From the NCBI GenBank assembly GCA_018714385.1, contig DVNL01000008.1:20730-84729 (forward strand): 64,000 nt of DNA. Reading direction: 5' to 3'. The translations under genes were made by a program, and so were the position numbers. Shown piece by piece: positions 4,454-46,674 of the stretch. How positions within the stretch are numbered: position 1 is the first letter of the stretch; the number at the start of each line of letters is the position of its first letter. This stretch comes from Candidatus Enterosoma merdigallinarum. Lineage in GTDB: Bacteria > Bacillota_I > Bacilli_A > RFN20 > CAG-288. Under the pieces are notes generated by a model, which worked only from the letters and a program-made list of their open reading frames with translations, was not told the origin of the DNA and made no database searches.

Positions 4454-5164
4454 ATGATCAAAATCGCCATTGTGGAGGACGAAGAGAGCCATCGTCTCCT
4501 TCTTCAGCGCTATGTGGAACGTTTTGCCTCGGAAGCATCCATCGAGGTCCAAACGACGCTTTTCAAGGACGGATTGAGCTTTCTGGCGGAATATGACACG
4601 GGATTTCAAATCGTCTTCATGGATATCGCCATGCCCGGCATGGACGGCCTGGAAACGGCCAAGAGGCTCCGCTCCAGGGATTCCGATGCCATTCTCGTTT
4701 TCGTCACCAGCCTGGCGAATTACGCCTTGAAGGGATACGAGGTCGATGCCATGGACTTTCTGGTCAAGCCCATCGACTATTTCCCCTTCTATCATCGGAT
4801 GGAAAGGGCAGTCCGGCTTTGCGCCAAGAAGCAGAAGATCTCTCTTTTTCTTCCGACTTCCGACGGCAAAGTGCGCGTGCAGCTGGAGGATGTCCGTTTT
4901 GTCGAAAGCCAGCTTCACTATCTCATATATCATGTCGGCAAGGAGAGCTATCGAATCCGGGGCTCCCTGAAAGATCTTCCCGACAGTCTCGGAAAACTGC
5001 CTTTCGTCCGGTCCTCCAATTCTTTTCTGGTGAACCTCTCCTATGTCGACAGGGTGCAGGGGGAAAGCCTGACCCTGCAAGGCGGGGAGGTCCTCCCCAT
5101 CTCCCGGTCTCGGAAGAAGGAGTTCCTGGAAGCCTTGGCCGTCTTCTACGGTGACAGGAAATGA
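4454..5164 (+). CDS. LytTR-family response regulator (AgrA/ComE-like)
   Basis: Receiver domain (KIAIVEDEE...FMDIAMPGMDG...LVKP) followed by a C-terminal LytTR DNA-binding domain. The start was chosen at the internal Met preceding the receiver domain. Confidence 0.85.
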   Translation: MIKIAIVEDEESHRLLLQRYVERFASEASIEVQTTLFKDGLSFLAEYDTGFQIVFMDIAMPGMDGLETAKRLRSRDSDAILVFVTSLANYALKGYEVDAMDFLVKPIDYFPFYHRMERAVRLCAKKQKISLFLPTSDGKVRVQLEDVRFVESQLHYLIYHVGKESYRIRGSLKDLPDSLGKLPFVRSSNSFLVNLSYVDRVQGESLTLQGGEVLPISRSRKKEFLEALAVFYGDRK

Positions 5165-6483
5165 TCGGCTTTTTCGTGCAGCTCATCGTGCCTCTGGCAT
5201 TGATGTTCTATCGCTTTCCACGCAAGAAGGCTTTTTGGCTTTGGTTGCTTCCGCAGCTTGCCGTCGAACTGACCATCAGCATCTTTTTCAGAACGCCCGA
5301 TGCTCTCACGTTCTTCCCCGAGCCGGTCAGCGTCTTTCTCTACTATCTTCTCTGTTATCTTTTTTCCTTCCTTTTGGTCCTTCTTCCGTTCAAGCTGAAT
5401 GTCTTCCGGACGCTGTTCTTTTGGACGGGAGCCATGGTCGTCCAGAATTTCGGACACCATTTCTACGGGCTTATCATGCGCCTTGCCGGCATCCCGCTTG
5501 CCAACCAGTATGACGACGTCACCTATCTTCTCGTCCTTACGGCCGTCTATATCGTTCTCTATGCCCTCTTCTACCTTTTGATCCTCCGCAAGCTTCGCGT
5601 CGAGGACCTGCAGCGCATCCCGAGAGTCTCCACCCTTCTCCTTTCGATGTCCTTCCTGACCATCATGATCGTCTTGGGAATCTATATTCGCCATTTCAAC
5701 AGCGACATTCTCGAGAACGGTTCGGTCGCCATGGTCTACGAGCTCTATTCCTCCATCCTCGCCGGCATGATTCTCTTCATCCAGTTCGGCATCTTCCGAA
5801 ATGCGAGGCTCGAGGAGGGGAACCGGGAACTTCAGATGCGGCTTGAGGCCGAGACACGCTACTACAGTATGGCGAGAGAGAACATGGAGCGCATCAACAT
5901 GCTCTCCCATGACCTGAAGCATCGTCTGATGGAACTTCAGAGCTCGGACAGTACTCGCAAGCAGGGAGAGCTGAAGGATTTGGAAAAGCAGGTGGACATC
6001 TACGACGCCATGGTCGAGAGCGGAAACGAGGCCCTGGACTATCTTTTGACGGAAAAGATGCGCCAGTGCCGGGAAAGGAACATCGATTTCTCTCTCCTGG
6101 TAGACGGAGCGGCCTTTTCCTTCATCGGGACGGGGGACCTCTGTTCCCTTTTCGGAAACGCCCTGGACAATGCCATCGAGGAGCAGGAGAGGGTGGAGGA
6201 AGGGAAAAGGCGTATTTTCCTTCGCGCCGTGAAGAACCGCGGGATGAGCCACATCCATGTGGAGAACGCCTGCCATGCCAGACCGGTCTTTGAAAACGGC
6301 TTTCCCAAGTCCACAAAGGCCGGAAAAGGCCACGGATATGGGACCAAGAGCATGCTTTTCCTCACGGAGAAATACGGCGGCAATCTGACGATGGTTTATC
6401 GAAACGGCCAGTTCATGGTCGACATTTTCATTCCTCTCCCTGCCGAAAATGCCAAAAACGACACCGAATCTGCCACGAAATAG
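5161..6483 (+). CDS. membrane sensor histidine kinase, AgrC/HPK10-like (GHKL ATPase)
   Basis: Six to seven N-terminal TM helices, then SHDLKH (H-box) and GNALDNAIE...GHGYGTKSM HATPase motifs. The gene is translationally coupled to the upstream RR (ATGA overlap). Confidence 0.85.
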   Translation: MIGFFVQLIVPLALMFYRFPRKKAFWLWLLPQLAVELTISIFFRTPDALTFFPEPVSVFLYYLLCYLFSFLLVLLPFKLNVFRTLFFWTGAMVVQNFGHHFYGLIMRLAGIPLANQYDDVTYLLVLTAVYIVLYALFYLLILRKLRVEDLQRIPRVSTLLLSMSFLTIMIVLGIYIRHFNSDILENGSVAMVYELYSSILAGMILFIQFGIFRNARLEEGNRELQMRLEAETRYYSMARENMERINMLSHDLKHRLMELQSSDSTRKQGELKDLEKQVDIYDAMVESGNEALDYLLTEKMRQCRERNIDFSLLVDGAAFSFIGTGDLCSLFGNALDNAIEEQERVEEGKRRIFLRAVKNRGMSHIHVENACHARPVFENGFPKSTKAGKGHGYGTKSMLFLTEKYGGNLTMVYRNGQFMVDIFIPLPAENAKNDTESATK

Positions 6484-6555
6484 CGAAAAGTGGCTCTACG
6501 ATGCAAATAATGCCAAAAAGGAGAAAGGGCTTTCAGAAGGACCTATAATGGTGGC

Positions 6556-7380
6556 ATGAAGAACGAGAAAAAGTTTCTTGCATTGGCCCTATCGATTCTT
6601 GCCCTGACGTCCTCTTGCGATGCTTTCGCCACGTCCAACGGGAACGAGTATGCCCCCGAAAGACAGCAGGCGAAGGAAAACATCCTCAACGGAAAGACGC
6701 TCTACTTCTTGGGAAGCTCCGTCACCTTGGGGATGCGAAGCAAGGAGTGCGCGATCCCGGACTATCTCTCTGCCATCGACGGCATGAACTGCGTGAAGGA
6801 TGCCGTGAGCGGAACGACGCTCATTTCCGAGGAAGAAGGGGATTCCTATTATGCCAGGCTGGTCCATTCCGATAGGTTCGACAAGAACGCGAGAATCGAC
6901 GCCTTCGTTCTTCAGCTTTCCACCAACGACGCACAGCATGACAGGATCGAGAAGTGGGGAACCATCACGGCGGATGATGTCTTCTCTCCCGATGCCTTCG
7001 ACATCCATACGACCTATGGTGCCATCGAGAGCATCCTGGCCTATGTCGAAAAGACATGGGATTGTCCGATCTACATCTATACCAACGCCTATTTCGGGGA
7101 TGAGGGGCTCCGCTCCATCGGGAACACCAAAGGATCCGATTATGCCAAGCTTGTCGATGGGGCCAAAGAGATCGTCGCCAAATACGACGGGAAAGAAGGC
7201 TACGAGGTCCGTCTGGTCGACCTCTTCAACGATGAGGCCTTCAATGACATCTCCGACGACGACTATCGCTTCTACATGGCGGATGCCATCCATCCCTATC
7301 GGACAGGCTACCTCTATTGGTGGACGCCCTATTTCGAAAAAGTCCTCTTGGAGGACTTCGCCGAGGAAGAGAAGGTTTAA
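6556..7380 (+). CDS. probable lipoprotein, SGNH/GDSL-like hydrolase
   Basis: Signal peptide with a lipobox-like LTSSC. GSSVT (GDS-like block I) and DAIHP (block V D-x-x-H) are both present. Confidence 0.65.
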   Translation: MKNEKKFLALALSILALTSSCDAFATSNGNEYAPERQQAKENILNGKTLYFLGSSVTLGMRSKECAIPDYLSAIDGMNCVKDAVSGTTLISEEEGDSYYARLVHSDRFDKNARIDAFVLQLSTNDAQHDRIEKWGTITADDVFSPDAFDIHTTYGAIESILAYVEKTWDCPIYIYTNAYFGDEGLRSIGNTKGSDYAKLVDGAKEIVAKYDGKEGYEVRLVDLFNDEAFNDISDDDYRFYMADAIHPYRTGYLYWWTPYFEKVLLEDFAEEEKV

Positions 7381-7491: not shown

Positions 7492-10400
7492 ATGATCAAA
7501 GACATTCTCAAGAATCAGAAGATCTGGCGTCCTGTCGCTTCCGTCTGCCTGCTTGTCAACATCTTGGCGATAGCGGGAAATGCGGTCACGCAGGAATGGT
7601 CCGGCTACATCAACAAGTTCCTCAACATCCAAGGAACGGCCATCGTCGATGACGACAATGCCGACAAGGACACCACCTACTTCAAGAGCGACTTCTCCTC
7701 CTATACCGACGTCCGCGACAACGCCAGAAACATCGCCCAACAAGTCCAGGACGAGGGCACGGTCTTGATGACCAACAAGGAGAACGCCTTGCCTCTTGCC
7801 AAGAAGAGCAAGGTGACCTTCTTCTCCTATTCCACCGTCGACATCGCCTATGGCGGAACGGGTTCGGGCGGCGTCACTGCCAGCGAGGAGAGGGAAATCG
7901 ATCTTCCCAAGGCCTGCGCTGCCGACGGCCGTCTGGAAATGAACCAGCAGATGTACAACTTCTACAAAGGGAAGCTCGATGAAGGCTATCAGGCGTCCAA
8001 TGGTCAGATCACCAGAAAGTCCGGCGGCGGCTGGGGGCCTAGCGCCACCCCCGTTTCCTTCCAGGTGCCCGAGATCAACGCCAGCGAATTCACCAATGAC
8101 CTCAAGGAAAGTTTCAACGACTATTCCGATGCCGCCATCTTCGTCCTGACCCGCATCGGCGGCGAGGGAAACGATCTCATCACCACCAGCGCGACTCCGG
8201 ATGCCGACAAGTACCTGGCCTTGACCGAGGACGAGAAATCCGTCCTCCAGGCGATGAAAGAGGGCCCCTTCAAGAAGAGGATCGTCCTCGTCAACACCTT
8301 CAACACGCCGGAACTCGGCTGGCTTGACGAATACGATATCGATGCCTGCCTCTACATCGGCGGACCGGGCGAATGCGGCCTGGATTCGGTCGTCGACATC
8401 CTCGTCGGCAACGTCAATCCCTCCGGAAAGCTTGCCGACACCTACGCCTATGACACCTTCTCCTCGCCGGCCATGCAGAACTATGGCGACTTCACTTTCG
8501 CCAATGCCGACAGCATCGCCAATGCCGACTCGCAGAAGTACTTGATGTACAACGAAGGCATCTATGTCGGCTACCGCTATTACGAGACCCGTTACGAAGA
8601 CAGCGTCCTCGGACGCGGAAACGCCTCCTCGACAACAGGGACCTTCGCCTCCGATAGCGGATGGGACTATGCCGAGGAAGTCCAGTTCCCCTTCGGTCAC
8701 GGACTCTCCTACACGACCTTCGAAGAGAGCATCACCGGATTCGAGGTCGATGCGAAGAACAAGAGCGCGACGATGACCGTCAGCGTCACCAACATGGGCG
8801 ACGTCGCCGGCAAGCATACCGTCGAACTCTACGGACAGGCGCCCTACAAGGCAGGAGGCATCGAGAAGGCCGCCGTCCAGCTCATCGGATTCGGCAAGAC
8901 CGAAAGCCTTGCCCCCGACCAGTCGGGCACCGTCGAACTGGAGATCGACCTGAGCGATCTTGCCAGCTACGACTACAAGGGAGCCAAGACGTACGTCATG
9001 GAGGACGGGACTTACTACTTCGCCCTTGGCGAAAGCGCTCACGATGCCTTGAACAACATCCTCGACATGAAGGGCAAGACCGTCAGCGACGGCATGGATG
9101 CGGAAGGCGATTCCTCTCTCGTTCGGGAATGGAACAAGTCCGGCGACGAGGCCGACTACTCCCTCTCCGCTACGCTCAACGAGATCACCAACCAGTTCGA
9201 GACGGCCGACATCAACTACTATGGCGAGGGCAAGGACATCGTCACCTACCTGAGCCGCAACGATTGGCAGGGAACCTGGCCCAAGAACATGGCCGGCTAC
9301 ACCGCCCCGGCTAAGATGATCGCCGACATGGATGCTCTCTACAGCCCGACGAACAATCCCAGCGCCTATCAGCCTAGCGACAAGGACACCTCCTCCATCA
9401 CCACGGGATCGACCGCGACGCAGTACAACATCGCCATGATGCGCGGACGCGACTATGACGACGAGAACTGGGATGTCCTTCTCGATCAGATATCCATCCA
9501 GGAGATGGCCGATTTCAACAAACAGGGCAGAAGCGCCATCAAGTCCATCGGCCTTCCCGAGACGACTGCCGTCGACGGACCTGCCGCCTGGACGAAATCC
9601 CACTACAAGGAAAAGTACGATGACTACAGCGAGAATGCCAAGGTCACCGAAGAGGCGATGGTCCTCTATCCGACGGAGACTGTCATCGCCGGGACATGGA
9701 ACGTCGATCTGACCCACAAGCTTGGCGTCAGCTTTGGAGAAGAAGGCCTCTGGGGTGGCGGAGTCGGCTGGTATGGCCCTGCCGCCAACATTCACCGCAC
9801 GCCTTATTCCGGACGTAACTTCGAATACTATTCCGAAGATGGCTTCATCTCCGGAAAGCTTGCCGAAGCCGAGACGAAGGGCGCCATGGAAAAGGGCGTC
9901 ATCCCTTACCTGAAGCACTTCTTCCTCAACGATCAGGAAACCAACCGTATCGGTGTCTGCACCTTCTCAAACGAGCAGGCCATCCGTGAAGTCTACCTCC
10001 GCGCCTTCCAGGATGCCTTCGAGACGACAGGAGAAGACGACAAGGCCTGCACCGGCGTCATGGGCGCCTTCAACCGCCTTGGCGTCACCTGGACCGGCCA
10101 CTACTCCAACCTTTGGAAGAACGTCATGGCCAAGGAGTGGGGCTTCACCGGCAATGTCACGACCGACTTCGGGCAGAAACCGCAGTCTTTGATGGATCCT
10201 CTTCTCGCCTACGATGCCGGAACCACGATGTTCTGCACTTCCGGAAGCTCCTTCTCCGAAATCGTCGCGCCGAGGGCTTCCACCGATCTGAAATTGCTGA
10301 CCAACATGCGTGAAGCCACACATCGCATCCTCTACAACTTCTCCAACTCCCTCGCCATGAACGGCCTTTCTTCCACCTCCCGCATCGTCGACATCACCAC

Positions 10401-10518
10401 GTGGTATGAAGCGGCCTTGATCGCCCTCATCGCCGTCAGCGCCGTCGGCATGGTCGGTTCCATCGGTCTCATCGGCTACTCGACTATCGATTCCCTCAGA
10501 AAGAAGGAGGAAAACTAA
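7492..10518 (+). CDS. membrane-anchored glycoside hydrolase family 3-like protein (catalytic barrel near the C-terminus; N- and C-terminal TM segments)
   Basis: 1008 aa. It has an N-terminal signal anchor. KHFFLNDQETNR and GNVTTDFG, the GH3 substrate-binding and nucleophile-region motifs, lie at about residues 800-890. There is an Fn3-like stretch, VSVTNMGDVAGKHTVELY. The C-terminus is a hydrophobic anchor, LIALIAVSAVGMVGSIGLIGY. It is a paralogue of 43507-46674. Confidence 0.8.
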   Translation: MIKDILKNQKIWRPVASVCLLVNILAIAGNAVTQEWSGYINKFLNIQGTAIVDDDNADKDTTYFKSDFSSYTDVRDNARNIAQQVQDEGTVLMTNKENALPLAKKSKVTFFSYSTVDIAYGGTGSGGVTASEEREIDLPKACAADGRLEMNQQMYNFYKGKLDEGYQASNGQITRKSGGGWGPSATPVSFQVPEINASEFTNDLKESFNDYSDAAIFVLTRIGGEGNDLITTSATPDADKYLALTEDEKSVLQAMKEGPFKKRIVLVNTFNTPELGWLDEYDIDACLYIGGPGECGLDSVVDILVGNVNPSGKLADTYAYDTFSSPAMQNYGDFTFANADSIANADSQKYLMYNEGIYVGYRYYETRYEDSVLGRGNASSTTGTFASDSGWDYAEEVQFPFGHGLSYTTFEESITGFEVDAKNKSATMTVSVTNMGDVAGKHTVELYGQAPYKAGGIEKAAVQLIGFGKTESLAPDQSGTVELEIDLSDLASYDYKGAKTYVMEDGTYYFALGESAHDALNNILDMKGKTVSDGMDAEGDSSLVREWNKSGDEADYSLSATLNEITNQFETADINYYGEGKDIVTYLSRNDWQGTWPKNMAGYTAPAKMIADMDALYSPTNNPSAYQPSDKDTSSITTGSTATQYNIAMMRGRDYDDENWDVLLDQISIQEMADFNKQGRSAIKSIGLPETTAVDGPAAWTKSHYKEKYDDYSENAKVTEEAMVLYPTETVIAGTWNVDLTHKLGVSFGEEGLWGGGVGWYGPAANIHRTPYSGRNFEYYSEDGFISGKLAEAETKGAMEKGVIPYLKHFFLNDQETNRIGVCTFSNEQAIREVYLRAFQDAFETTGEDDKACTGVMGAFNRLGVTWTGHYSNLWKNVMAKEWGFTGNVTTDFGQKPQSLMDPLLAYDAGTTMFCTSGSSFSEIVAPRASTDLKLLTNMREATHRILYNFSNSLAMNGLSSTSRIVDITTWYEAALIALIAVSAVGMVGSIGLIGYSTIDSLRKKEEN

Positions 10519-10519
10519 G

Positions 10520-10954
10520 ATGGCTTTCATCAAGAAATTCCTGTCCACCAAGGCCAGCGGATTCTACTTCGCCCTTGCCAGTCTTCTCTTCGGCCTTCTT
10601 GCCCTCATCGTCTACACGGCCAGAGGAGGAAACAGCTATTCGCCCGTCTCTACCGCCGCCGTCGTCATACTCGTCTTTGCCGTCCTGACGAATGTCGTCG
10701 TCCTGATCAAGGACTTCGGCCTTCTTGCCTATGTCCCCTACATTCTCTATGTCGTCACACTCGGCGTCTGGCTCAACTCCGAGATGCTCTATCTCTCCAA
10801 TGTCATGACCGCCATCGACAACAACGCCCTCGATCCGGCCTGGATCTGCATGGTCGTCTTCCTCGTCCTTGCCATCGCCGCCGGCTTTGCCGCCACGATC
10901 ATGAAGATCTCCAAGCCCAAGAACAAAGTCGAGACAGTCGTCGAGGAAAAGTAG
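10520..10954 (+). CDS. small polytopic membrane protein (paralogue of 46675-47184)
   Basis: 144 aa with four hydrophobic segments. It starts 2 nt after the GH3 stop. A similar gene follows the second GH3 paralogue. Confidence 0.6.
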   Translation: MAFIKKFLSTKASGFYFALASLLFGLLALIVYTARGGNSYSPVSTAAVVILVFAVLTNVVVLIKDFGLLAYVPYILYVVTLGVWLNSEMLYLSNVMTAIDNNALDPAWICMVVFLVLAIAAGFAATIMKISKPKNKVETVVEEK

Positions 10955-11083
10955 TCCTGACGATGATCGCACCCCTGTCCGCCTCGGGCAGGGGTGTTTT
11001 TTGTCCGGAAGGCTTTGCCTTGCGCGCAGGAATACTATAAAATGGCAATAGTTTCCGGGACGTTTTCTTGCGAGGGCTCTTTT

Positions 11084-12397
11084 ATGGAAATGTTCAACAA
11101 CGTCGTCTGGTGGATAAACATCGTCGTCATCATTCTCGTCGGCTCCTGCTTTGTCTTCCAGCTCCTTTTCATGGCGCTCTTCTTCCTCAAGCCGAGGCGC
11201 TACAAGAAGGCGGAGAAGTTTCACGACTTCACCTTCATCCTCCGTGCCAGGAACGAGGAGGAGGTCATCGGCGACTGCATCGACTCCTGTCTGAAAGTCG
11301 ACTACCCGGCGGAAAAGAAGCACGTCGTCGTCTTCTGCCACAACTGCTCCGACAGGACGGCACAGATCGCAAGGGAACACGGCGCGAGGGCGATAGAGAT
11401 ATTCGACGACCATCCCGACCACCAGAAGGCGAGCTATTGCATGTACCATGGCATGAACGAGCTGAAGAAGGACGGGGAAGGCGCCTATGAGTACTTTCTC
11501 TTCATCGATGCCGACAACCAGGTCGACAGGAACTATCTTCGCGCCTGCAACGATGCCGTCGACGACGGGGTGGAGCTGGGAAGGACATTCGAGAACAGCA
11601 AGAACCTCACCGACAACATCCTCTCCTGCATGACGGGCCTCTGGTATGCCAGGGACGATCGTTTCGCCTGCCGGGGAAGGAGCGCATTGGGCTTTGGCTG
11701 CGTGATGAACGGCTGTGCCTCCCTGGTCAAGGCGGAATATGCCCTGTCGTGGGATGCGATGTCCACTTCCGACGACATCGAATTCACCATCAACCGCCTT
11801 CTGAAGGACGAGAAGAAGGTCGAATACATCGACGAGGCGGTCGTCTACGAAGACCAGCCGACGACCTTGGACGATATCTTCAAGCGGAACTCCCGCATGG
11901 GAAACGGCCTGAACAAGCTCTTCTGGTCCAAAGGCGTCCGCTGCTTCAAGATGTTCTTCAAGAACCTCTTCCGCAAGGACATGGACATGGGGACGAAATT
12001 CACCTATCTCGACCAGTTCTTCAATCTCGCGACCATACCGGCGGCCTTCCTTGCCGTCGCCTGGTTCCCGCTTTACTACATTTACACCCTCATCTGGGTC
12101 GGAATCCAAGGCCCTTTGACGATATATGGACTTGGCACGTTCGGCCTGAGATGGTTCCTTCTCTTTATCGTCATCGTTGTCGCCTGCTGCTATATCGTTC
12201 CCTTCCTCATCCAGCCTTTCGTCTCTTACCTTGCCGAAAAGAAGAGGCTCATCGTCACGAACAAGAAGGTCCTCTGGTCCTCGATCCTGCTTTTCCCCTT
12301 CTTCATGATCATCAACGCCATCGCCATCATCAAGGGCATCCTCACCAAGCCGAAATGGCAGAAGCTCAAGCGCAGCAAGACGAAGGTCGAACAATAA
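11084..12397 (+). CDS. membrane glycosyltransferase family 2 (processive synthase-like)
   Basis: N-terminal TM, then a GT-A fold with the FIDADN (DxD) motif and C-terminal TM helices. The start was chosen at the Met preceding the first TM; ORF-track alternative is 10994. Confidence 0.7.
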   Translation: MEMFNNVVWWINIVVIILVGSCFVFQLLFMALFFLKPRRYKKAEKFHDFTFILRARNEEEVIGDCIDSCLKVDYPAEKKHVVVFCHNCSDRTAQIAREHGARAIEIFDDHPDHQKASYCMYHGMNELKKDGEGAYEYFLFIDADNQVDRNYLRACNDAVDDGVELGRTFENSKNLTDNILSCMTGLWYARDDRFACRGRSALGFGCVMNGCASLVKAEYALSWDAMSTSDDIEFTINRLLKDEKKVEYIDEAVVYEDQPTTLDDIFKRNSRMGNGLNKLFWSKGVRCFKMFFKNLFRKDMDMGTKFTYLDQFFNLATIPAAFLAVAWFPLYYIYTLIWVGIQGPLTIYGLGTFGLRWFLLFIVIVVACCYIVPFLIQPFVSYLAEKKRLIVTNKKVLWSSILLFPFFMIINAIAIIKGILTKPKWQKLKRSKTKVEQ

Positions 12398-13119
12398 TGA
12401 AGGAGATCTGCTTTCTTTTCATCCACGGCATTGCCGGGTCGCCTCGCGTCTTCGATTTTCTCAAGACGTCCCTTCCTTCCGGGGTGGACGTCTTTTTCCA
12501 TGTCCTTTCCGGTCACGGAGAGGACAGCCGGTCCTTCGGAAGGAAAGGCTATCCTCTTTGGCGGAAGGAAGTCCTCCGCCGTGCGGACATCCTGCTTTCG
12601 GAATATCGCCGCATCGTCCTCGTCGGCCATTCCATGGGCTGCCTCCTCTCGATGGAGATCGCCCTTTCCTGTCCGGACAGGGTTTCTTACCTGTTCCTTC
12701 TTTGCCCGCCTTTGAAGATAGGCGTCCGTCCTGTCCCGATGCTCTCCAGCATGGCGCGAGTGCTTTTTGCAAGGCCGCCGAGAGACGAGGCGATGGCTGC
12801 CTCCTGGCGATGTTCGGGCCTTCCCCTTTCGCGGAATCCCTTTTCCTATATCCCATGGGCAAGGCCTTTTTGCAGCCTTCTTTGGAACATTCCGAAGGTG
12901 CGGAAAAGGATCGGGAATCTTTCGGTCCCCTATCTGGCTTTTCTGGCCGGAAAGGACGAGCTTGTCTCGATCAAGGCCATCCGTCATCTTCCTCCCGTGG
13001 GCAAGACGGTCCTCCTTCCGGAATCCGGACATTATCTTTTCTCGCCGGAGGAAGAAAAGACGATCCGGATGGCCTTTTCCGATTTCGTCTCAAATGGGTA
13101 TCATTTTCCCGCATGCTAG
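12397..13119 (+). CDS. alpha/beta-hydrolase fold esterase/lipase
   Basis: FIHGIAGS and the GHSMG nucleophile elbow. The ATG overlaps the GT2 TAA (TAATG). Confidence 0.7.
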   Translation: MKEICFLFIHGIAGSPRVFDFLKTSLPSGVDVFFHVLSGHGEDSRSFGRKGYPLWRKEVLRRADILLSEYRRIVLVGHSMGCLLSMEIALSCPDRVSYLFLLCPPLKIGVRPVPMLSSMARVLFARPPRDEAMAASWRCSGLPLSRNPFSYIPWARPFCSLLWNIPKVRKRIGNLSVPYLAFLAGKDELVSIKAIRHLPPVGKTVLLPESGHYLFSPEEEKTIRMAFSDFVSNGYHFPAC

Positions 13120-13150
13120 GGTATAATCCTTTTTGGAGGTCAACCTAGAA

Positions 13151-13378
13151 ATGAAAGCGTGGTTCAACAGCTGCTCCAGACTCGTCCAGGTCATCCTTCT
13201 TCTCATCCCTGTCGTCAACTGGATCGTGGAAATTCTTGTCCGCGGAGACGAGTTCCTTCACACCAAGGGCCTTATCGATCTGGTCATGCTCATCCTTGCC
13301 GTCCTCTCCGTCGGTATTCTCGGCTGGGTGGATTTGGTCTGGTCCCTGCTCTTCAAGCATCTCATCTTCGCAAAGTAA
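13151..13378 (+). CDS. small membrane protein (2 TM)
   Basis: GGAGG 11 nt upstream of the ATG and a TATAAT at 13122-13127. Two hydrophobic helices, then terminator hairpin 13391-13415. Confidence 0.5.
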   Translation: MKAWFNSCSRLVQVILLLIPVVNWIVEILVRGDEFLHTKGLIDLVMLILAVLSVGILGWVDLVWSLLFKHLIFAK

Positions 13379-13542: not shown

Positions 13543-14628
13543 ATGAAAAAAATGAAATTCCTCCTGCTCGTCCCTGCCCTTTTGCTCTGCGCCTGCCAAG
13601 GGGAGACCTCCTCGGCGACGCCTTCTCTTCCTCCGGCTTCGAGCGGGAGTCCTTCTTCAAGTCCCTCCTCGTCTTCTCCCTCCTCCTCGTCTTCCAAAGG
13701 CCCCGTCCAGGTGGAGATACCGACCTATGACGGCATTCCCGGGACCCCTTCGCCGATCCTCCTTCAGGGCGAGGCGCCGAAAGACTATGAGGGCGTTTCG
13801 CCTCTGGATGTCATCGATGATGGCTTCAAGGCCTATACCCTGATCGACCACAGGCTGGCGAACACGAATTACTATTGCACCATGAACGGCGTCGTCGACG
13901 TCAATGTCGACATCGTCGGCATGCACTATTCCCAGAACGTATCCAGCGTCAAGGCCTTCGTCGGCACCACAGGCGTCAGCCAGGCCGTCGCTCTCTCCAA
14001 GGACACTTTCGCAAACCTTTCCGTCAACAACGTCGAACAGCGCCTTGAGGACGTGAGGAAGGGATATTACGGTTACCGCCGCGGCATCGCCTCCACCAGC
14101 TGGATCGACGAGGAGACCGGCCTCGGCCATGTCCAGGATTGGGAAGAGAAGGACATCTCCGTCAATTCCCGTCCCACGTTCCTCGACACCTTCGGGCACG
14201 ATCTTTGCGGCGTGACGAACTATTACGTCCCCGATTCAGGATACGTGAGCCTGACGCGGGCGGCCTATGAGGAGGGCAAATACACCTTCGACTTTGAATT
14301 CTCGACGAGCGAGGAGAAAAACGCCGGCAAGTATTATCTTCGCGAGCAGCAGCACATGATGTCCACGAGCGGATCGGGCATCACGTCCAGCATGGTGGAG
14401 CTCTCCATCCGCACCTTGGCGGCAAGCATCGTCGTCGACGAGACTTTCCTCCCCATTTCCATGCATGTCGAAGAGACTTACCAGGCTAGCCTCCAGGCTT
14501 TCGACCTCGTCCGTCTCACCTCCAGCTTCGACACGAAATTCGTCTCCTTCGAGGGCGAGGACATTCCCGATGCCTATGTGGAGGACATTTTCGACGAGAC
14601 CCTGTCCAGCCTGCGGGAGGTCGCCTGA
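13543..14628 (+). CDS. lipoprotein of unknown function with Ser/Pro-rich linker
   Basis: Signal peptide plus lipobox (LLLCAC), then a low-complexity S/P linker and a globular domain of about 280 aa. The stop overlaps the ABC gene start (ATGA). Confidence 0.65.
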   Translation: MKKMKFLLLVPALLLCACQGETSSATPSLPPASSGSPSSSPSSSSPSSSSSKGPVQVEIPTYDGIPGTPSPILLQGEAPKDYEGVSPLDVIDDGFKAYTLIDHRLANTNYYCTMNGVVDVNVDIVGMHYSQNVSSVKAFVGTTGVSQAVALSKDTFANLSVNNVEQRLEDVRKGYYGYRRGIASTSWIDEETGLGHVQDWEEKDISVNSRPTFLDTFGHDLCGVTNYYVPDSGYVSLTRAAYEEGKYTFDFEFSTSEEKNAGKYYLREQQHMMSTSGSGITSSMVELSIRTLAASIVVDETFLPISMHVEETYQASLQAFDLVRLTSSFDTKFVSFEGEDIPDAYVEDIFDETLSSLREVA

Positions 14629-17018
14629 TGATTTCTCTGAAGTCCCTCCACAAGCTTTACCGCGTCAAGGGGCAGGCTCCCGTCGAGGCCCTGAAAGGCA
14701 TCGATCTCACGCTTCCCGGCACAGGTTTCGTCTTCATCCTCGGAAAGAGCGGATCGGGAAAGTCGACCCTTCTCAACGTCCTGGGAGGCCTGGACTCCTT
14801 CGACGAAGGCGACCTGATCCTGTTTGGCAAGTCGGCGAAGACGTTCACGATGAAGGACTACAATTCCTATCGGAGCGAATACGTCGGCTTCATCTTCCAG
14901 GAATACAACATCCTTCCGCACCAGACCGTCTACGAAAACGTCGCCCTCGCTCTTCAGATCCAAGGCAAGAGCCCGAGCGAGAAGGACATCGAGGAGATTC
15001 TTTCCAAGGTCGGGATCCTCGATCTCAAGGACAGGAAGCCCGGCCAGCTTTCCGGCGGCCAGAAGCAGCGTGTCGCCATCGCAAGAGCCTTGGTCAAGAA
15101 ACCCAAGGTCATCCTGGCCGATGAGCCGACCGGTGCCTTGGACAGCCAGAACACGAAAGACATCTTCGACCTTCTTTCCGAACTGAGCCGGGAGTGCCTT
15201 GTCGTCTGCGTCACCCATGACGGGGCATATGCCGAGAGATATGCCGACAGGATCGTCCGTCTCAAGGAAGGAAGGATCATCGGCGACTATGTCAAAAGCC
15301 GCGAGGAGAAAAAGACCGTCGCCGGTTCGGACAACGTCTACGTCCTGTCCAAGGGCCTCTATGAGATTCCGGAGCCGGACAAGGTCACCGGAGCCGATCT
15401 TACCGCCATCCTCGAATCGACCAAGGACGTTCCGGGAAAGGCCTATTACGCCTATGGCGAGACCATCCGTCTTCCCGTCGATCTGATCGAAGGGGACGAC
15501 TCGGAGAAGATCCCTTACGGCTTCCTTGAGAGGGATCCTTTTCTCGCGGACAAGAAGGAAGACACGCTTTCCTACAAGAGCGGCAATTCTCATCTGTCTT
15601 TGTTGACCATCCTGAAGATGGGGGCAGAGAATATCACCCATGGCATCACCCGCCTTTGCATCACGATCGTCCTGTCCATCATGGCCTTCACGATGCTCGG
15701 CGTCGTCTCCGCCGTCTCCTCCTTCGATGCCTCCGGTGCCTTTGCCTCTTCCCAGGAAATCTATTCCCAACACATGACCGCCATCACCAAGGTGTTCCGC
15801 GACGACGGGGAGGAATCGACTTCCGGCAGTCAGAACATGACGGAGCAGGACTTTGCTATCGTCCGTGAGCGGTTTGAAGAGGCCCTTCCTTCCTATCGCG
15901 CCATCGGCGCCTCGCTCTCTGCCGACCTCCTCGCTACGGACTTCGAAGGATCGGACACCTATTTCCGCACGGCTCTTTATACCGCGACTGCTCTTCCTTC
16001 AAACTATGACTTCGCCTCCCTCGACTATGATATTGTCGGTTCCCTTCCCAAAGGGAAGGATGAAGTCCTTCTCACCAATTATCATTACGAGCTTTTCTCC
16101 CGTGCAGGCGTCCGCTTCGCCGACGGAGATTCCCTTGCCGCCTCTTCGTTCGCCCCATCCGACCTCGTCGGAAAATCCCTCTTCCTTTCCTCCGGCGGGA
16201 ATGCCTCGCCTTTCGTCGTCTCCGGCATCCTCATGACCGAGCTTTCCGGCGAGGATCTGGAGAAGGCCTTCACCGCCGAGAACTACAATCGGGACGTCAT
16301 CTCCTTCGCTTCCATCGTCCGCAACTACTACAATTACGGACCGGCCCTGACCTGCTATCTCACTGAGGAGGCTCTTCGGGACGGGACAGTCCGGTCGACT
16401 TTGATGATGAACGGCTCCATTTCCTTCGCCCTGGTCCCTAGCCGGGAATCGGCCGCACTCAAGGACATCTACGGATTCGCCCAGGAGACCTTCCCTTTCG
16501 CCGACTACGACAGCGCCCTGGAGGAGAACTTCGTCAAGAAGTCCTACGTGCCGTCCACGCCGGTCTATACTTCTCTCAACGGGGCATCGTTCAAGAATGC
16601 CTTCTCCACCATCAGCCTGATCGGAATCTATGCGGCAATTGCCCTTGCCGTCCTCTCCGTCCTCATCACGATGAACTATATGTTCACGTCGATCTCCTTC
16701 AAGAAGGAAGAGATCGGTGTCCTCAAGGGACTCGGCGCCAGAAGCACCGACATCTTCGGGATCTTCGCCATCCAGGCCGTCATCCTGGGCGTCTTCAACT
16801 TCGCCCTGGCCTCTCTTCTCTCCTTCTTCGTCATCGGGTTCCTGGACGGCTTCCTGCAGAACTTCTTCGCCATCCCCCTTCACCTGATCGGATTCAACTA
16901 CGTCACGGCGCTCCTTTTGCTTCTCGTCTCGGTCCTGGTCGCCCTTCTTGCCGCTTTGATCCCCTCCTATTCCATCGCGTCGATGAAGCCGGTCGATGCC
17001 ATGAAGCGCGGCGAGTGA
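14628..17018 (+). CDS. MacB-type ABC transporter, fused ATPase and FtsX-like permease
   Basis: Walker A GKSGSGKST, signature LSGGQKQR and Walker B ILADEPT, then a large extracytoplasmic domain and C-terminal TM helices of FtsX/MacB type. Confidence 0.85.
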   Translation: MISLKSLHKLYRVKGQAPVEALKGIDLTLPGTGFVFILGKSGSGKSTLLNVLGGLDSFDEGDLILFGKSAKTFTMKDYNSYRSEYVGFIFQEYNILPHQTVYENVALALQIQGKSPSEKDIEEILSKVGILDLKDRKPGQLSGGQKQRVAIARALVKKPKVILADEPTGALDSQNTKDIFDLLSELSRECLVVCVTHDGAYAERYADRIVRLKEGRIIGDYVKSREEKKTVAGSDNVYVLSKGLYEIPEPDKVTGADLTAILESTKDVPGKAYYAYGETIRLPVDLIEGDDSEKIPYGFLERDPFLADKKEDTLSYKSGNSHLSLLTILKMGAENITHGITRLCITIVLSIMAFTMLGVVSAVSSFDASGAFASSQEIYSQHMTAITKVFRDDGEESTSGSQNMTEQDFAIVRERFEEALPSYRAIGASLSADLLATDFEGSDTYFRTALYTATALPSNYDFASLDYDIVGSLPKGKDEVLLTNYHYELFSRAGVRFADGDSLAASSFAPSDLVGKSLFLSSGGNASPFVVSGILMTELSGEDLEKAFTAENYNRDVISFASIVRNYYNYGPALTCYLTEEALRDGTVRSTLMMNGSISFALVPSRESAALKDIYGFAQETFPFADYDSALEENFVKKSYVPSTPVYTSLNGASFKNAFSTISLIGIYAAIALAVLSVLITMNYMFTSISFKKEEIGVLKGLGARSTDIFGIFAIQAVILGVFNFALASLLSFFVIGFLDGFLQNFFAIPLHLIGFNYVTALLLLLVSVLVALLAALIPSYSIASMKPVDAMKRGE

Positions 17019-17109
17019 TCCTTTCGGCCAAAAACACGTCTTTTTGCTTTCAAGGCATTCTCTTTTAAAGAAAGTTGTCTTAGAATAAAAGACAAGGAGA
17101 ATTGTGAGA

Positions 17110-17496
17110 ATGGTGATCGACAAAGAACTGGCAATGAAGATCTGGGAAGCTATCTACGGCGACAAGGAGGTCGTCCCCGATTGCTTTGGCGCCTACATGA
17201 AGAAGGACGCCTATTCCGACGAGGCGGTCCTCTGCACTTCCTCCCGCGATGGCCGTGTCTACGACTACAGCTGGACACTCGCCCGTCTCAATCCTACGGA
17301 CGTCGACAATCTCAACAACCTCGAGCCGATGATGCGGCTTTCCGCCCTGGAGATCTCGGACTATCCCGAGTTCGTCGTCCGCGGCAAGAAATACAAGGTC
17401 GTCAAGACGCTCGGCTACGACGGCTACGGCATCGAGGATGCCGACGGCAAGCGCGTCGACTGGAAGGCCCGCGAGAAGCGGATGTTCTCCAAGTAA
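17110..17496 (+). CDS. hypothetical protein
   Basis: AAGGAG 10 nt upstream of the ATG. Terminator hairpin at 17514-17538. No recognisable motifs. Confidence 0.5.
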   Translation: MVIDKELAMKIWEAIYGDKEVVPDCFGAYMKKDAYSDEAVLCTSSRDGRVYDYSWTLARLNPTDVDNLNNLEPMMRLSALEISDYPEFVVRGKKYKVVKTLGYDGYGIEDADGKRVDWKAREKRMFSK

Positions 17497-17513
17497 CTTT
17501 CTTCTGTCTCTTC

Positions 17514-17538
17514 GGGGATCCTTCGGGATCCCTTTTTG
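17514..17538 (+). terminator. rho-independent terminator
   Basis: GGGGATCC-ttc-GGGATCCC followed by TTTTT. Confidence 0.6.
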
Positions 17539-17707
17539 CTGACAAAGAAAAGGAAATGTCTTTTTGCTTCGGTCTTTGGAAGACGAAAAGCATTATAAAT
17601 GTTCCCTTTTGTCACAATTGTAAGCCATTTCACGAAGCAGACCGAGACACAAGGCATAAAATGAAGACGTCCGGAATCGTTCCGGAAGAAAAAGAGGAAT
17701 AAACAAA

Positions 17708-18148: not shown

Positions 18149-18154
18149 GCATAG

Positions 18155-18185
18155 AAAAAGGGAGCTTTCCGGCTCCCTTTCTTTC
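18155..18185. terminator. bidirectional rho-independent terminator
   Basis: AAAAAGGGAGC-tttcc-GGCTCCCTTTCTTT between convergent genes. Confidence 0.65.
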
Positions 18186-18193
18186 GATCGGCC

Positions 18194-18331: not shown

Positions 18332-18448
18332 TTCGTTGCCTCCTTTGTTCCATTTAAGCACTTTTTCTTGTCGTAGGAAAGCTTTTTGCATCTCGCAAAG
18401 GCTTTCGATGCTAGAATGGAAAAGTTTTCGTGACATCGGGAGGTGAAC

Positions 18449-35042: not shown

Positions 35043-35054
35043 TCTCCGTTTTCA

Positions 35055-43506: not shown

Positions 43507-46500
43507 ATGATTTTTAACAAAAAGCACGTCCCTGTCTTCCGTGGTTTGGCGGCGACGACTTTCTCACTTGCCGTCCTCGCTACCATGGGCTATGGCATCG
43601 CGGACACGTGGAGAAGCACGGTCGATGCGGCCTTGGGGACCACATCCTATGAAATCAGTGCCAACTCCGAACCCCGCTACAAGTCTGACTACACCAAAGC
43701 AGACGATCTGATGAATGAGCTGAAGGAGATTTCCGTTCAGGAAGGTATCGACGGCACGGCGATTCTTAAGAACGACAAAAACGCTCTGCCTCTTGCCTCC
43801 AAGGCCAAGATCAATCTCTGGGGCAGTGGTTCCTACAATCTTTATCGCGGCATGAACCAGGCTAAAAACAGCGATGCGGTCGATCTCGTCGGCGCTCTCA
43901 AGACAGCCGGATTCACTCTCGATCCCACTCTGGAAGCCATTTATACCGAAATCAATGAGGAACAGGTTGTCGAGTCCTCCGGATGGGGCGGACCGAGAAT
44001 TGATCCGAAGTATCCAAACCAGAGTGCTCCGGCCTATGATGTCTATTCGATCCGTGAAGTCAATCCTTCCAAGTTCACTCAGGAAGGCTTTGGAACGGCA
44101 GCTTCCGGCTGGGCCTCTTCCTTGACCGGCGATGTCAACATCGTCACCTTCACTCGTCCGGGCGGCGAGGGCAACACCTACAAGCCTGGTGCGACCACGG
44201 ATTCCGACGGCAACCCCCTCGATCAGAATCCTCTCGCCTTCTCTCCCGATGAATTGGCGGTCATCGATGCCGCAAAGGCCACAGGCAAGCCTGTCATCGT
44301 CCTTCTGAACACCTCTTGCCAGTTCGAGCTTGGCCCGATCGTCAAGGGCGGCGAGCACGAAGTCGATGCCATCGCCTATATCGGCCTTCCCAACGACTAT
44401 CAGTGCACGGGTATCGTCAAGGTCCTCGCCGGCGAAGAGAACGCCACGGGCGCCCTTGCGGACACCTATGCCACCTATTCCACAAGCTCCCCTTCCATGA
44501 TGAACTTCGGCGGCGATATGTATTCCGACTATGAGACGGTCGCCACGACGGCCGGCCAGGATCCTCGTTGGAACATCGACATCGCAAATGAAGGCGCCGG
44601 ATCTTTCGGCGGCAGCGTCACCTACAACGGCGGCATGTACTATGTCGAGGCCGAGGGCATCTACACGGGATACAACTATTACGAAACCCGCTATTACGAT
44701 TCCATCGCCAACCCCGGCTACAACGCCGCTTCCGATGCCGGTCTCTATGCCAGCACGGGAACGTGGAACTACGACGATGAAGTCTGCTACACCTTCGGCT
44801 ACGGCCAGAGCTATCTGGACTACACCGAGGAACTTCGCAGCATCGATGTCCAGCTCGATCCCGCCGGCTACATCACGGCCGTCGTCCGCGTCACCAATAC
44901 CAGCGACAAGGCCGGCCGGTTCCGCACGGAACTCTATGTCAACGCCCCCTATACTGAATATGACAGGGAAAACCTTGTTGAGAAGAGCGCCATCCAGTTC
45001 CTGAATTCCGCCAAGACCAAGGTCATTCAGCCTGGCGCCTTCGAGGATGTCACCATCCGCGTGCCCAGCAAGTACCTCGCCTCCTATGATGCCAACGGCT
45101 ATGGCACCTATATCCTCGATGGCGGCGAATATGTCTTCGCTCTCGGAAACGGCGCCCACGAGGCCGTCAACAACGTCCTTGCCCATCAGGGACACGATGT
45201 CGAAGGCGAAGAGAGCGAAGTCAAGACCTGGAGCGGAATCCGTTCCGGAACCGTCGACTACACTACCTTCAGCCGTACCGCTTCCGGCGGACAGGTCACC
45301 AACAAGCTCGAGAAGACCGATATCAACTACTATCTCTCCGACGAGGACCAGATCACCTACCTCTCCAGACAGGATTGGAAGGGAACCTATCCCGTCGATT
45401 TCAACAAGATCAACGACGGCAAGGGATTCACGCTCGCTGACTCGCCGAAGAAGGACGAGTGGATCAAGGAGCTCCGCAACGAGCAGTACACCGTCAAGAC
45501 CGACGAGCCCGTCGAGAACATGGACGGCGTCGACAATGGCTGGACCTGGGAGAACATGCCCGGCGATGCCATCAACGACATCAACCATCCGTTCTGGGAT
45601 GAATATGTTGAGCAGATTCCTGCCGAGGAAGCTCTCGGTGCCATCGCCCACGGCGGAAGCCAGGCCGACGAGCTGACCGGTGCCGAAAACCCGATCGTCA
45701 AGCAGTACGACGGCCCTGCTGGCTTCAACAACCAGACCCTCTCCACCAACAACGGCGATCCCGAGACCGATCCTTACTATGTCGATCCCGAGAGCGAGGC
45801 CGGAAAGTTCAAGGACAACATCCACTCCCAGACTCTCTCCGGTTCCTCCTTCAACCCTGCCCTTGCCTATCGCTGGGGAAGAGCCCTCGGCAACTTCGGC
45901 CTCTGGGCCAGCGTCTACAACGTCTGGGCTGCCGGTCTCAACGTCCACAGAAACCCCTACAATGGCCGTAACATCGAATATCTCTCCGAAGACGCCATGC
46001 TGACCAACATCTGGGGTAGCGAATTCATCCGCGCCACCCGCGAGATGGGAATCCTCGTCGGCCCCAAGCACCTTGGTTTCAACGACCAGGAGTACAATAG
46101 AGCCGGCGTCAGCGCTTACATGACCGAGCAGAAGGCCCGTCAGACCGACCTCAGAGCCTTTGAGGGATCCATAGCGGAAGGCGGTGCCCTCGGCTATATG
46201 TGCGCCTTCAACAGAATGGGTGCCACCAACGTCTCCCACTATGCCGAACTCCATCGTGACCTCATCCGCGGCGAGTGGGGCTTCAAGGGCCTGATCACCA
46301 CCGACATGATGAACAACGCCTACTACTTCAACCCCGAATCCTGCGCCATGGCCACCATCACCATGATGGCCGACTTCGCCGGAAACAACTCTCACCTCAA
46401 CATGGGAGCCGATGGCAAGGATGCCACCTGGACCTATCTCTCTCCCGAAGCCATCGAGAACGACCAGACTCTCGTCGATGCCTCCAGAGACGCCATGAAG

Positions 46501-46674
46501 TATCAGCTCTATGCCTTCGCCAACACCGCCATCAAGAACATCTCCACCGTCCGTGTCACGCCGTTCTGGGAGACGGCCCTCATCGCCCTCATCGCCGTCA
46601 CCTTCACGCTTGCTGCCGCTTCCACCGTCGCCCTTGCTCTCAGCTATGTTCTGGATAAAAAGGAGCAAAACTAA
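43507..46674 (+). CDS. membrane-anchored glycoside hydrolase family 3-like protein (paralogue of 7492-10518)
   Basis: 1055 aa with an N-terminal signal anchor. KHLGFNDQEYNR and GLITTDMM motifs lie in the C-terminal third. The C-terminal hydrophobic anchor LIALIAVTFTLAAASTVALAL is present. Confidence 0.8.
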   Translation: MIFNKKHVPVFRGLAATTFSLAVLATMGYGIADTWRSTVDAALGTTSYEISANSEPRYKSDYTKADDLMNELKEISVQEGIDGTAILKNDKNALPLASKAKINLWGSGSYNLYRGMNQAKNSDAVDLVGALKTAGFTLDPTLEAIYTEINEEQVVESSGWGGPRIDPKYPNQSAPAYDVYSIREVNPSKFTQEGFGTAASGWASSLTGDVNIVTFTRPGGEGNTYKPGATTDSDGNPLDQNPLAFSPDELAVIDAAKATGKPVIVLLNTSCQFELGPIVKGGEHEVDAIAYIGLPNDYQCTGIVKVLAGEENATGALADTYATYSTSSPSMMNFGGDMYSDYETVATTAGQDPRWNIDIANEGAGSFGGSVTYNGGMYYVEAEGIYTGYNYYETRYYDSIANPGYNAASDAGLYASTGTWNYDDEVCYTFGYGQSYLDYTEELRSIDVQLDPAGYITAVVRVTNTSDKAGRFRTELYVNAPYTEYDRENLVEKSAIQFLNSAKTKVIQPGAFEDVTIRVPSKYLASYDANGYGTYILDGGEYVFALGNGAHEAVNNVLAHQGHDVEGEESEVKTWSGIRSGTVDYTTFSRTASGGQVTNKLEKTDINYYLSDEDQITYLSRQDWKGTYPVDFNKINDGKGFTLADSPKKDEWIKELRNEQYTVKTDEPVENMDGVDNGWTWENMPGDAINDINHPFWDEYVEQIPAEEALGAIAHGGSQADELTGAENPIVKQYDGPAGFNNQTLSTNNGDPETDPYYVDPESEAGKFKDNIHSQTLSGSSFNPALAYRWGRALGNFGLWASVYNVWAAGLNVHRNPYNGRNIEYLSEDAMLTNIWGSEFIRATREMGILVGPKHLGFNDQEYNRAGVSAYMTEQKARQTDLRAFEGSIAEGGALGYMCAFNRMGATNVSHYAELHRDLIRGEWGFKGLITTDMMNNAYYFNPESCAMATITMMADFAGNNSHLNMGADGKDATWTYLSPEAIENDQTLVDASRDAMKYQLYAFANTAIKNISTVRVTPFWETALIALIAVTFTLAAASTVALALSYVLDKKEQN

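Follow-up and report, generated by a model that had tools for sequence, protein, structure and literature searches.

Two cassettes of a permuted, membrane-anchored GH3 glycosidase and a four-helix membrane partner in Candidatus Enterosoma merdigallinarum, one of them next to a LytTR two-component system

A 64,000-nucleotide stretch of Candidatus Enterosoma merdigallinarum DNA (contig DVNL01000008.1, forward-strand positions 20,730 to 84,729) carries two cassettes, each composed of a gene for a large glycoside hydrolase of family GH3 and a small gene for a protein with about four transmembrane (TM) segments. This stretch is referred to below as the window, and all coordinates are window positions unless a related locus (L-number) is named; copy 1 consists of big1 and small1, and copy 2 of big2 and small2. 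Both gene pairs lie where the initial annotation had placed them, with large proteins of about 1000 aa and abutting small genes (spacing 1 nt in copy 1 and 0 nt in copy 2). Directly 5' of copy 1, precomputed Pfam matches revealed a LytTR response regulator and a HATPase_c_5 kinase, a pair that was absent from the initial annotation and is the most conserved neighbour of this GH3 family. The features on which the argument depends are as follows.

4454..5164, + strand: LytTR-family response regulator (Pfam Response_reg and LytTR); the open reading frame (ORF) is open from 4352, and the probable start is the ATG at 4454
5161..6483, + strand: polytopic sensor histidine kinase, HATPase_c_5 (Pfam PF14501; TM scan)
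6446..6519, + strand: three copies of LytTR-box-type phased direct repeats, aaaaTGCCAaaaa, aatcTGCCAcgaa and aataaTGCCAaaaa
6545..6550, + strand: TATAAT, a -10-like hexamer just 5' of the GDSL gene (read from the sequence)
6556..7380, + strand: GDSL/SGNH-type esterase with a lipoprotein-like signal sequence (Pfam Lipase_GDSL_2, E 2.6e-5, below cut-off)
7492..10518, + strand: big1, permuted GH3, 1008 aa (Pfam, AlphaFold2 model, alignments)
10520..10954, + strand: small1, 4-TM partner, 144 aa (TM scan, AlphaFold2 model, profile search)
10969..10997, + strand: intrinsic terminator with a 13-bp stem, 9 G-C pairs and a T-rich tail, TTTTTTGT
43507..46674, + strand: big2, permuted C-terminally anchored GH3, 1055 aa
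46675..47184, + strand: small2, 4-TM partner, 169 aa
47205..47235, + strand: terminator-like hairpin of 12 pairs followed by TTTATT, between small2 and the GH78 gene

A pairwise alignment of big1 and big2 ran from end to end (30% identity, E 8e-123), in agreement with the paralogy proposed for the large proteins. Pfam mapping disclosed an inverted domain order in both. In big1, Glyco_hydro_3_C occupies residues 90-361, an Fn3-like domain 442-516, and the Glyco_hydro_3 barrel 721-893, with barrel and sandwich scores of 45.3 and 79.2 bits against gathering cut-offs of 27 and 31. The corresponding regions of big2 are 86-330, 491-548 (a weak Fn3-like match below cut-off), and 780-937, and its barrel and sandwich scores of 43.0 and 55.9 bits also exceed these thresholds. 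The inverted order suspected in the initial annotation, sandwich to Fn3-like to barrel rather than the canonical GH3 arrangement, was therefore borne out, while its alternative of a 650-aa N-terminal extension fell, since the GH3_C and Fn3-like domains occupy that part of the protein and their position ahead of the barrel marks a circular permutation. The same order (PF01915, PF14310, PF00933) is common to 120/120 homologues among the matches listed in the precomputed Pfam data.

In an alignment with Thermotoga neapolitana Bgl3B, big1 residues D892 and E225 fall on D242 and E458, which we take to be the nucleophile and the acid/base of Bgl3B, respectively. D892, E225, and the subsite -1 residues R769, K808, and H809 are invariant across a 97-homologue alignment, which argues that the members of the family are working enzymes. 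Both cassettes are best explained as encoding a catalytically competent, exo-acting beta-glycosidase of the permuted GH3 subfamily, as judged from these conserved residues and the domain order. Residue D695 of big1, the subsite -1 Asp of the DGP motif, is Asn in 30 of the 97 homologues, while the other catalytic residues checked are invariant; this Asp/Asn difference may serve as a marker of substrate specificity. The breakpoint of the permutation was located from the same comparison: residue 68 of big1 aligns with Bgl3B residue 315, and the barrel ends at about Bgl3B 306 (extrapolated from the alignment), so that the breakpoint falls in the short linker that joins barrel and sandwich in canonical GH3s. 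Since the breakpoint lies within this interdomain linker, both ends of the ectodomain would be expected to leave the fold next to each other.

A sequence search of the PDB returned two solved GH3 structures with the barrel in the C-terminal half, 5K6L (921 aa) and 5WUG (955 aa). The AlphaFold2 model of big1 (predicted local distance difference test score, pLDDT, 82; predicted template modelling score, pTM, 0.85) found its best full-length Foldseek matches in 5K6L-O and 5WUG/5WVP, over 957-985 columns at E ~1e-44, whereas canonical GH3s matched over just ~435-610 columns. The 5K6L protein, GlyA1, has been described as "a novel subfamily of GH3 with permuted domain topology" (Ramirez-Escudero et al. 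2016, PMC5104943), and a second permuted GH3, BrGH3A, was described in 2024 (PMC11233000). GlyA1, BrGH3A, and the Paenibacillus barengoltzii enzyme (5WUG/5WVP) share with big1 the order of (alpha/beta)6 sandwich, FnIII domain, and (alpha/beta)8 barrel; catalytic Asp and Glu are conserved between GlyA1 and big1 at a sequence identity of only ~22%. GlyA1 has an extra C-terminal domain, and a term search of PMC5104943 returned no mention of a signal peptide, transmembrane segment, or anchor. Unlike GlyA1, big1 and big2 carry an N-terminal export/anchor segment, a C-terminal TM helix, and a tetraspan partner, the last found in two clades. The permuted GH3 described here is thus a new member of a known subfamily; the initial annotation had called the whole arrangement non-textbook, which does not hold for the permutation, published with crystal structures (PMC5104943), and does hold for the conserved tetraspan partner, which is new.

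TM segments were called by a Kyte-Doolittle hydropathy scan, which placed a C-terminal TM segment in both big1 and big2. An N-terminal hydrophobic segment is clear in big1 and weaker in big2, where it stays below threshold yet is visible. The big1 chain begins with an N-terminal basic tail and a hydrophobic segment at ~14-33, and it ends with a juxtamembrane TWY motif, a C-terminal TM helix at 971-997, and a KKEEN tail. To place these features in the wider family, we used a scan of one genome per species that yielded 80 loci with GH3 homologues of 34-68% identity, from Clostridia, Bacilli, Bifidobacterium, Coriobacteriia, and Streptococcus. By our tally, a C-terminal TM segment with an aromatic P/T-W-W/Y motif ahead of it and a basic tail behind it is present in about 70 of the 80 related GH3s, and most have an N-terminal basic tail and a hydrophobic stretch (~18-27 residues in the inspected examples). 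With this charge distribution, both tails would lie in the cytoplasm and the enzyme outside; the predicted arrangement is an exported enzyme that its C-terminal TM helix retains at the outer face of the cytoplasmic membrane. Proteins of this layout were read as "secreted GH3 with a C-terminal TMH" by Kelly et al. (2010, PMC2914790). SN243, a metagenomic GH3 beta-glucuronidase, likewise has a predicted N-terminal signal and C-terminal TM segment and was taken as cell-surface bound (bioRxiv 10.1101/2022.04.25.489410); it resembles big1 and big2 in both features, while its paper reports no permutation, partner, or two-component system.

The small proteins were annotated as having four TM segments, and about four were found in each by the hydropathy scan. 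In the AlphaFold2 model of small1 (pLDDT 83.6), four helices form a bundle and the first outer loop contains a small beta element. BLASTP detected no significant similarity between small1 and small2. When profiles were built from the positional homologues of each, however, profile-profile comparison gave a probability of 92.8% over 130 columns, compared with 2.6% for reversed-sequence controls that keep the TM composition. By this comparison small1 and small2 are remote homologues, a relationship that pairwise alignment of the partners misses and that appears at the profile level only. An exhaustive profile search returned 622 representative clusters (50% identity) at E<=1e-3, of which 190 reach E<=1e-10, and nearly all members are stand-alone proteins of 130-170 aa. 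No family was assigned to small1, small2, or 25 homologues by scans against Pfam and NCBIfam.

Three candidate identities for the small protein were rejected. A holin-antiholin protein like LrgA/CidA is not indicated, as LrgA is absent among the listed Pfam matches of small1, small2, and 25 others at E<=1, where TM families appear at chance level only. Derivation from the kinase TM domain was dismissed because the hhalign probability is below 1%, equal to that of the reversed control. Finally, the top Foldseek matches of small1 are the claudin-like TARP, Cav gamma, and MS4A/FcERI beta proteins (TM-score 0.45-0.57), which share a four-helix bundle, a similar size, and the first-loop beta element; the best E is 0.048, none reaches 0.001, and identity is 10-16%. 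At E >= 0.05 or thereabouts, this likeness to eukaryotic tetraspan auxiliary subunits is a generic one of topology, is not evidence of homology, and gives no pointer to function.

The position of the small gene is conserved. All matches of the small-family hidden Markov model (HMM) in ~1.2 Mb of locus DNA lie beside a permuted GH3. Gaps of -20 to +16 nt separate the GH3 gene from a small gene directly 3' of it in 23 of the 80 loci, and six further HMM matches lie near GH3 copies in an arrangement that was not resolved. Look-ups of genomic context that started from small-protein homologues found 7/7 directly after a GH3, and the position is kept across Bacillota and Actinomycetota. In every resolved locus, then, the small gene is the direct 3' neighbour of a permuted GH3. 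In a rough neighbour-joining tree of the GH3s, the partner occurs in 24 of the 27 members of two neighbouring clades, one with big1 and the other with big2; the three members without a counted partner comprise one truncated member and two that lack it. The partner occurs in none of the ~70 other anchored GH3s. This clade-wise co-occurrence supports the suggestion of the initial annotation that a membrane-tethered GH3 works with a dedicated small membrane protein.

A Shine-Dalgarno sequence lies inside the last GH3 codons, ~9 nt before the small-gene ATG (AAGGAGG in big1, AAGGAG in big2). Together with the hairpin terminator after the small gene, this embedded signal indicates that the GH3 and small genes form a translationally coupled unit that ends the transcript. 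At 10498-10519 and 46654-46674, the codons of the K-K-E-E-N and D-K-K-E-Q-N tails are those that spell the Shine-Dalgarno sequence, and the KKEE tail of close homologues may be under a dual constraint of coding and translation initiation. A role of this tail as a cytoplasmic interaction motif was rejected, as it is not conserved beyond the close clade and its codons are the Shine-Dalgarno sequence of the small gene.

Tandem arrays of two to three anchored permuted GH3 paralogues were observed, each array within one locus, in Oscillospiraceae and Lachnospiraceae (L054 and L056, with three copies each, and L055, L029, L031, and L073), and the small partner accompanies only the copy of the big2-like clade. 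In L017, a 193-aa 4-TM ORF (10871-11452) abuts an anchored GH3 outside the partner clades; it has no small-family HMM match and may be an unrelated membrane protein in the same position.

The two-component system 5' of copy 1 was examined in the same set of loci. The best NCBIfam match of the response regulator is BtsR, below cut-off, and the kinase has 6-7 TM segments within its first ~210 aa and no large extracellular loop. Upstream context was informative in 73 of the 80 loci and uninformative in 7. The regulator/kinase pair lies 5' of the GH3 gene, on the same strand and within 2 kb, in 43 of the 73, at a distance below 500 nt in 29 and with one intervening gene in 14. It is found elsewhere in the locus in 12 more, and no homologue of the pair was found in the remaining 18, which have sufficient upstream sequence. 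The GDSL esterase gene occupies the same position in L001, L002, L090, and L091, and L090 and L091 retain all five genes of the module, regulator through small partner.

This association has been glimpsed before, in one sentence of Kelly et al. (2010, PMC2914790) that notes LytTR regulators beside exported C-terminally anchored GH3s in Butyrivibrio proteoclasticus B316. The same LytTR-GH3 association is seen at copy 1, and the Pseudobutyrivibrio loci L023 and L025 have the order regulator, kinase, GH3; the permutation, kinase type, DNA repeats, and small partner are undescribed in that remark. Our literature search for LytTR together with GH3 or glycoside hydrolase found only the 2010 remark and no follow-up. 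What is new is the conserved family of tetraspan partners, together with the delimited module of five genes.

Copy 1 resembles LytSR-lrgAB, AgrCA, ComDE, and BtsSR in pairing a LytTR regulator and a polytopic kinase with an adjacent target operon, putative in copy 1. The operon controlled by LytSR encodes LrgA, a small multi-TM protein that also has four TM helices. Copy 1 differs from these systems in that its small protein does not match the LrgA family and its output is a glycosidase; genes for an autoinducing peptide or an AgrB-like protein were not seen.

In many loci, the interval between the kinase gene and the next gene contains direct repeats. In the window, the repeat cores (TGCCA) begin at 6450, 6471, and 6511, 21 and 40 bp apart, and they are followed by the TATAAT at 6545 and the GDSL gene at 6556. 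The remaining window matches to the repeat lie inside coding sequence and are probably due to chance. Among the related loci, the motif WTTTTGCCWA recurs between the kinase gene and the next gene at 20-21 bp spacing in L001, L004, L006, L008, and L013 and less regularly in L014 (19-26 bp), and it is common to the big1 clade. Perfect or near-perfect repeats at 20-21 bp are present in L004, L006, L007, L008, L011, L013, and L079, and perfect 9-mer direct repeats occupy the same interval in L004, L007, L011, and L079. A spacing of 21 dominates the near-perfect repeat pairs in this interval, in a count that is inflated by overlapping windows. A classical LytTR operator consists of ~9-bp direct repeats with a 12-bp spacer, a 21-bp period, and on the strength of this layout the GDSL, GH3, and small1 genes are read as a putative regulated operon. 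Perfect 9-bp repeats at 21-bp spacing in the kinase-GH3 interval of L007 (~7884-7920, GACCATTCT), L011 (~1318-1350, CAGCTTACG), and L079 (~7874-7905, TTACGAATT) are distinct in sequence from the TGCCA box, a difference suggesting that paralogous LytTR systems have evolved different operator specificities.

The distribution of the partner and that of the two-component system are separate. The big2 protein has a partner and no adjacent system, and most system-linked GH3s have no partner. Since the partner's distribution follows the GH3 clade rather than the two-component system, we favour a model, at a probability of roughly 0.6, in which the anchored enzyme has the small protein as a membrane subunit and the two-component system acts as transcriptional controller. 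As an integral-membrane subunit, the small protein would associate with the anchor or juxtamembrane region of the GH3 and stabilise, position, or regulate the enzyme; we infer this physical association from gene adjacency and co-inheritance only. We do not think that the small protein is a transporter or a required signalling component. Copy 1 (GDSL esterase, GH3, and small1) would be the output operon of the upstream LytTR regulator and polytopic kinase, with the regulator presumably binding the phased TGCCA repeats at 6446-6519. In one plausible circuit, a product released by basal levels of the surface enzyme would be sensed by the kinase, and induction of the operon would follow. Copy 2 would instead be wired into an operon for rhamnose catabolism with a GH78 enzyme and a GPH transporter.

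Several observations weigh against parts of this proposal. A conserved [A/S/G]-[I/V]-[A/G/S/T]-G motif, a fit for signal peptidase I, closes the N-terminal segment, and because this small-x-small-G motif is compatible with cleavage, the double anchor proposed in the initial annotation is left unproven: the C-terminal anchor stood in both proteins, and the N-terminal segment, weak in big2, may be either a second anchor or a cleaved signal peptide that leaves a single C-terminal anchor. NCBIfam equivalog scores are all far below their cut-offs, and substrate specificity is not readable from sequence. The window repeats match at 7/9 positions only, and part of their length lies within the 3' end of the kinase ORF. 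A search for the TGCCA-type 21-bp repeat upstream of big2 and of the rha genes found none.

An alternative is that the AgrC-like kinase, which lacks an ectodomain, uses the anchored GH3, alone or together with the tetraspan partner, as its extracellular input module, and that substrate binding or turnover is relayed through TM-TM contacts. Ectodomain-less kinases can depend on a membrane partner encoded at the same locus, as in BceAB-BceS, SaePQ-SaeS, and LiaF-LiaS. The absence of a sizeable extracellular loop among the 6-7 TM segments of the kinase fits such a role, as do the adjacent and co-directional kinase and GH3 genes in the 43 of 73 loci, the layout of TM, ectodomain, and TM that resembles the sensing module of a classical kinase, and the breakpoint in the interdomain linker, from which the ectodomain ends should emerge side by side. 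However, the linkage to the two-component system persists in relatives in which other domains replace the C-terminal TM helix (L035, L043, L047, L036, and L072), which weakens the model. Moreover, the partner and the two-component system occur independently, the catalytic residues are invariant as expected for working enzymes, the small family has no similarity to the kinase TM domain, and the linkage is already accounted for, as that of a regulator and its target, by the direct repeats in front of the GH3 operon. The likeness to BceAB-BceS, SaePQ-SaeS, and LiaF-LiaS is conceptual only; homology was not found, and here the partner and the kinase show no co-occurrence. We therefore regard this alternative as unlikely, and we are equally sceptical of its fuller form, in which GH3 and tetraspan partner together act as a detachable extracellular sensing module. 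If it were true, a working glycosidase would be the receptor of a glycan- or glycoside-sensing system of three or four components, widespread in Gram-positive gut bacteria, and the circular permutation would matter by uniting both chain ends at the membrane.

The small 4-TM protein could also be a permease or channel, perhaps oligomeric, for the sugar or aglycone released by the GH3, given that it is membrane-embedded, strictly adjacent to an exo-glycosidase, and slightly more conserved in its extracellular loops than in its TM helices. A protein of ~140 aa with 4 TM segments and no Pfam or NCBIfam transporter family would be an unusual transporter, though, and its weak Foldseek likeness is solely to non-transporting tetraspan auxiliary subunits. 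Copy 2 has its own GPH transporter, other loci carry 8-9 TM proteins beside the GH3, and the ~70 related anchored GH3s lack the partner. Transport is thus an improbable function compared with that of a membrane subunit.

The initial annotation had linked copy 1 to the genes on its 3' side, proposing that the GH3 and its partner remodel a polymer made by the adjacent membrane GT2 synthase, with the esterase and the 2-TM peptide in the same system. These genes were all found, as follows.

11015-11043: promoter-like site between small1 and the GT2 gene
11084-12397: GT2 (Pfam GT2 families)
12397-13119: alpha/beta hydrolase
13133-13378: 2-TM ORF, 81 aa, with its own TATAAT at 13122-13127

Their physical adjacency to copy 1 speaks for the proposal in this genome only. 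The strong terminator at 10969-10997 and the separate promoter-like site stand between small1 and the GT2 gene, and none of the 80 related loci yielded a homologue of the GT2, of the alpha/beta hydrolase, of the 2-TM protein (81 aa), or of a 361-aa lipoprotein encoded further 3'. In L090 and L091, the two closest relatives inspected, unrelated genes lie 3' of the cassette, with no GT2, hydrolase, or 2-TM gene; the small-protein homologue of L090 is 79% identical. We consider the remodelling idea highly improbable and effectively refuted; copy 1 belongs to the LytTR two-component module rather than to the neighbouring glycosyltransferase.

That the small genes are chance ORFs in G+C-rich DNA, as their missing family annotation and the null BLASTP result between them might suggest, is likewise effectively refuted and next to impossible, given the 622 clusters at E<=1e-3 (190 at E<=1e-10) of mostly 130-170 aa, the position conserved across Bacillota and Actinomycetota, the small1 pLDDT of 83.6, and the embedded Shine-Dalgarno sequence in both copies.

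Surface retention of glycosidases and the sensing of plant glycosides are poorly mapped in Gram-positive gut and rumen bacteria, which are without the well-studied SusC/D and hybrid two-component machinery of Bacteroides. The present analysis defines a widespread module of LytTR regulator, polytopic kinase, and anchored permuted GH3, plus a tetraspan partner in two clades, that ranges over Clostridia, Bacilli, Bifidobacterium, Coriobacteriia, and Streptococcus, and it corrects a tempting assignment of copy 1 to a GT2 operon. The candidate regulator binding sites and the association of partner and enzyme are testable, and cultured strains carry the module. Among these carriers are Pseudobutyrivibrio xylanivorans DSM 14809 (L025), which lacks the partner, Bifidobacterium asteroides ESL0199 (L014) and Blautia aquisgranensis CLA-JM-H16 (L066), which both have it, and Thermophilibacter provencensis (L016). 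If the partner is a true subunit, it would represent a new kind of accessory protein for a surface carbohydrate-active enzyme.

Copy 2 lies in a rhamnose locus, in agreement with the initial annotation, with the following neighbours on its 5' and 3' sides.

39476-40957, + strand: rhaB-like FGGY kinase, 5' of copy 2
40967-42226, + strand: L-rhamnose isomerase RhaA, 5' of copy 2
42229-43032, + strand: class II aldolase (rhaD), 5' of copy 2
47257-49803, + strand: GH78 alpha-L-rhamnosidase, 3' of copy 2
49849-50733, + strand: 294-aa ORF with no assigned function, 3' of copy 2
50881-52989, + strand: MFS_2/GPH-type glycoside transporter, 3' of copy 2

Thus big2 and small2 follow rhaB, rhaA, and rhaD and precede the GH78 gene, the ORF without an assigned function, and the transporter gene, and the same rhaB-rhaA-rhaD trio precedes the big2 orthologue in L090. 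Near copy 2, neither a repeat of the LytTR type nor a two-component system was found. Judging from this context, copy 2 probably removes a beta-linked sugar from rhamnosylated plant glycosides.

In L090, the rhamnose/big2 cassette (13626-18432) lies ~8.5 kb 3' of copy 1, compared with ~33 kb in the window, so the region between the two cassettes is rearranged; an IS66-family transposase (306-2310) is located just 5' of the LytTR module of L090. In the big2 relatives L081 (7537-12952) and L083 (7439-12866), the cassette is followed by a GH2 gene, a gene for a 184-186-aa protein that has no Pfam match and overlaps the next gene, and a canonical-order GH3, an arrangement suggestive of a larger operon for glycoside utilisation that the same LytTR system would control.

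Elsewhere in the window, positions 13543-17018 encode the 361-aa lipoprotein, which contains a long linker rich in Ser and Pro and matches no Pfam family, and, directly after it, a MacB-like fusion of an ABC ATPase with an FtsX permease (796 aa). Two tRNA genes at 34967-35127 are followed by a region of low G+C content at 35200-39400 (0.40-0.47 versus ~0.55 elsewhere); the sole Pfam match among its scanned ORFs is a GNAT acetyltransferase, and the region may be an island integrated beside the tRNA genes. At 53028-54563, a single 511-aa ORF joins a DUF975 domain to a 'putative ABC-transporter type IV' (CmpB) domain.

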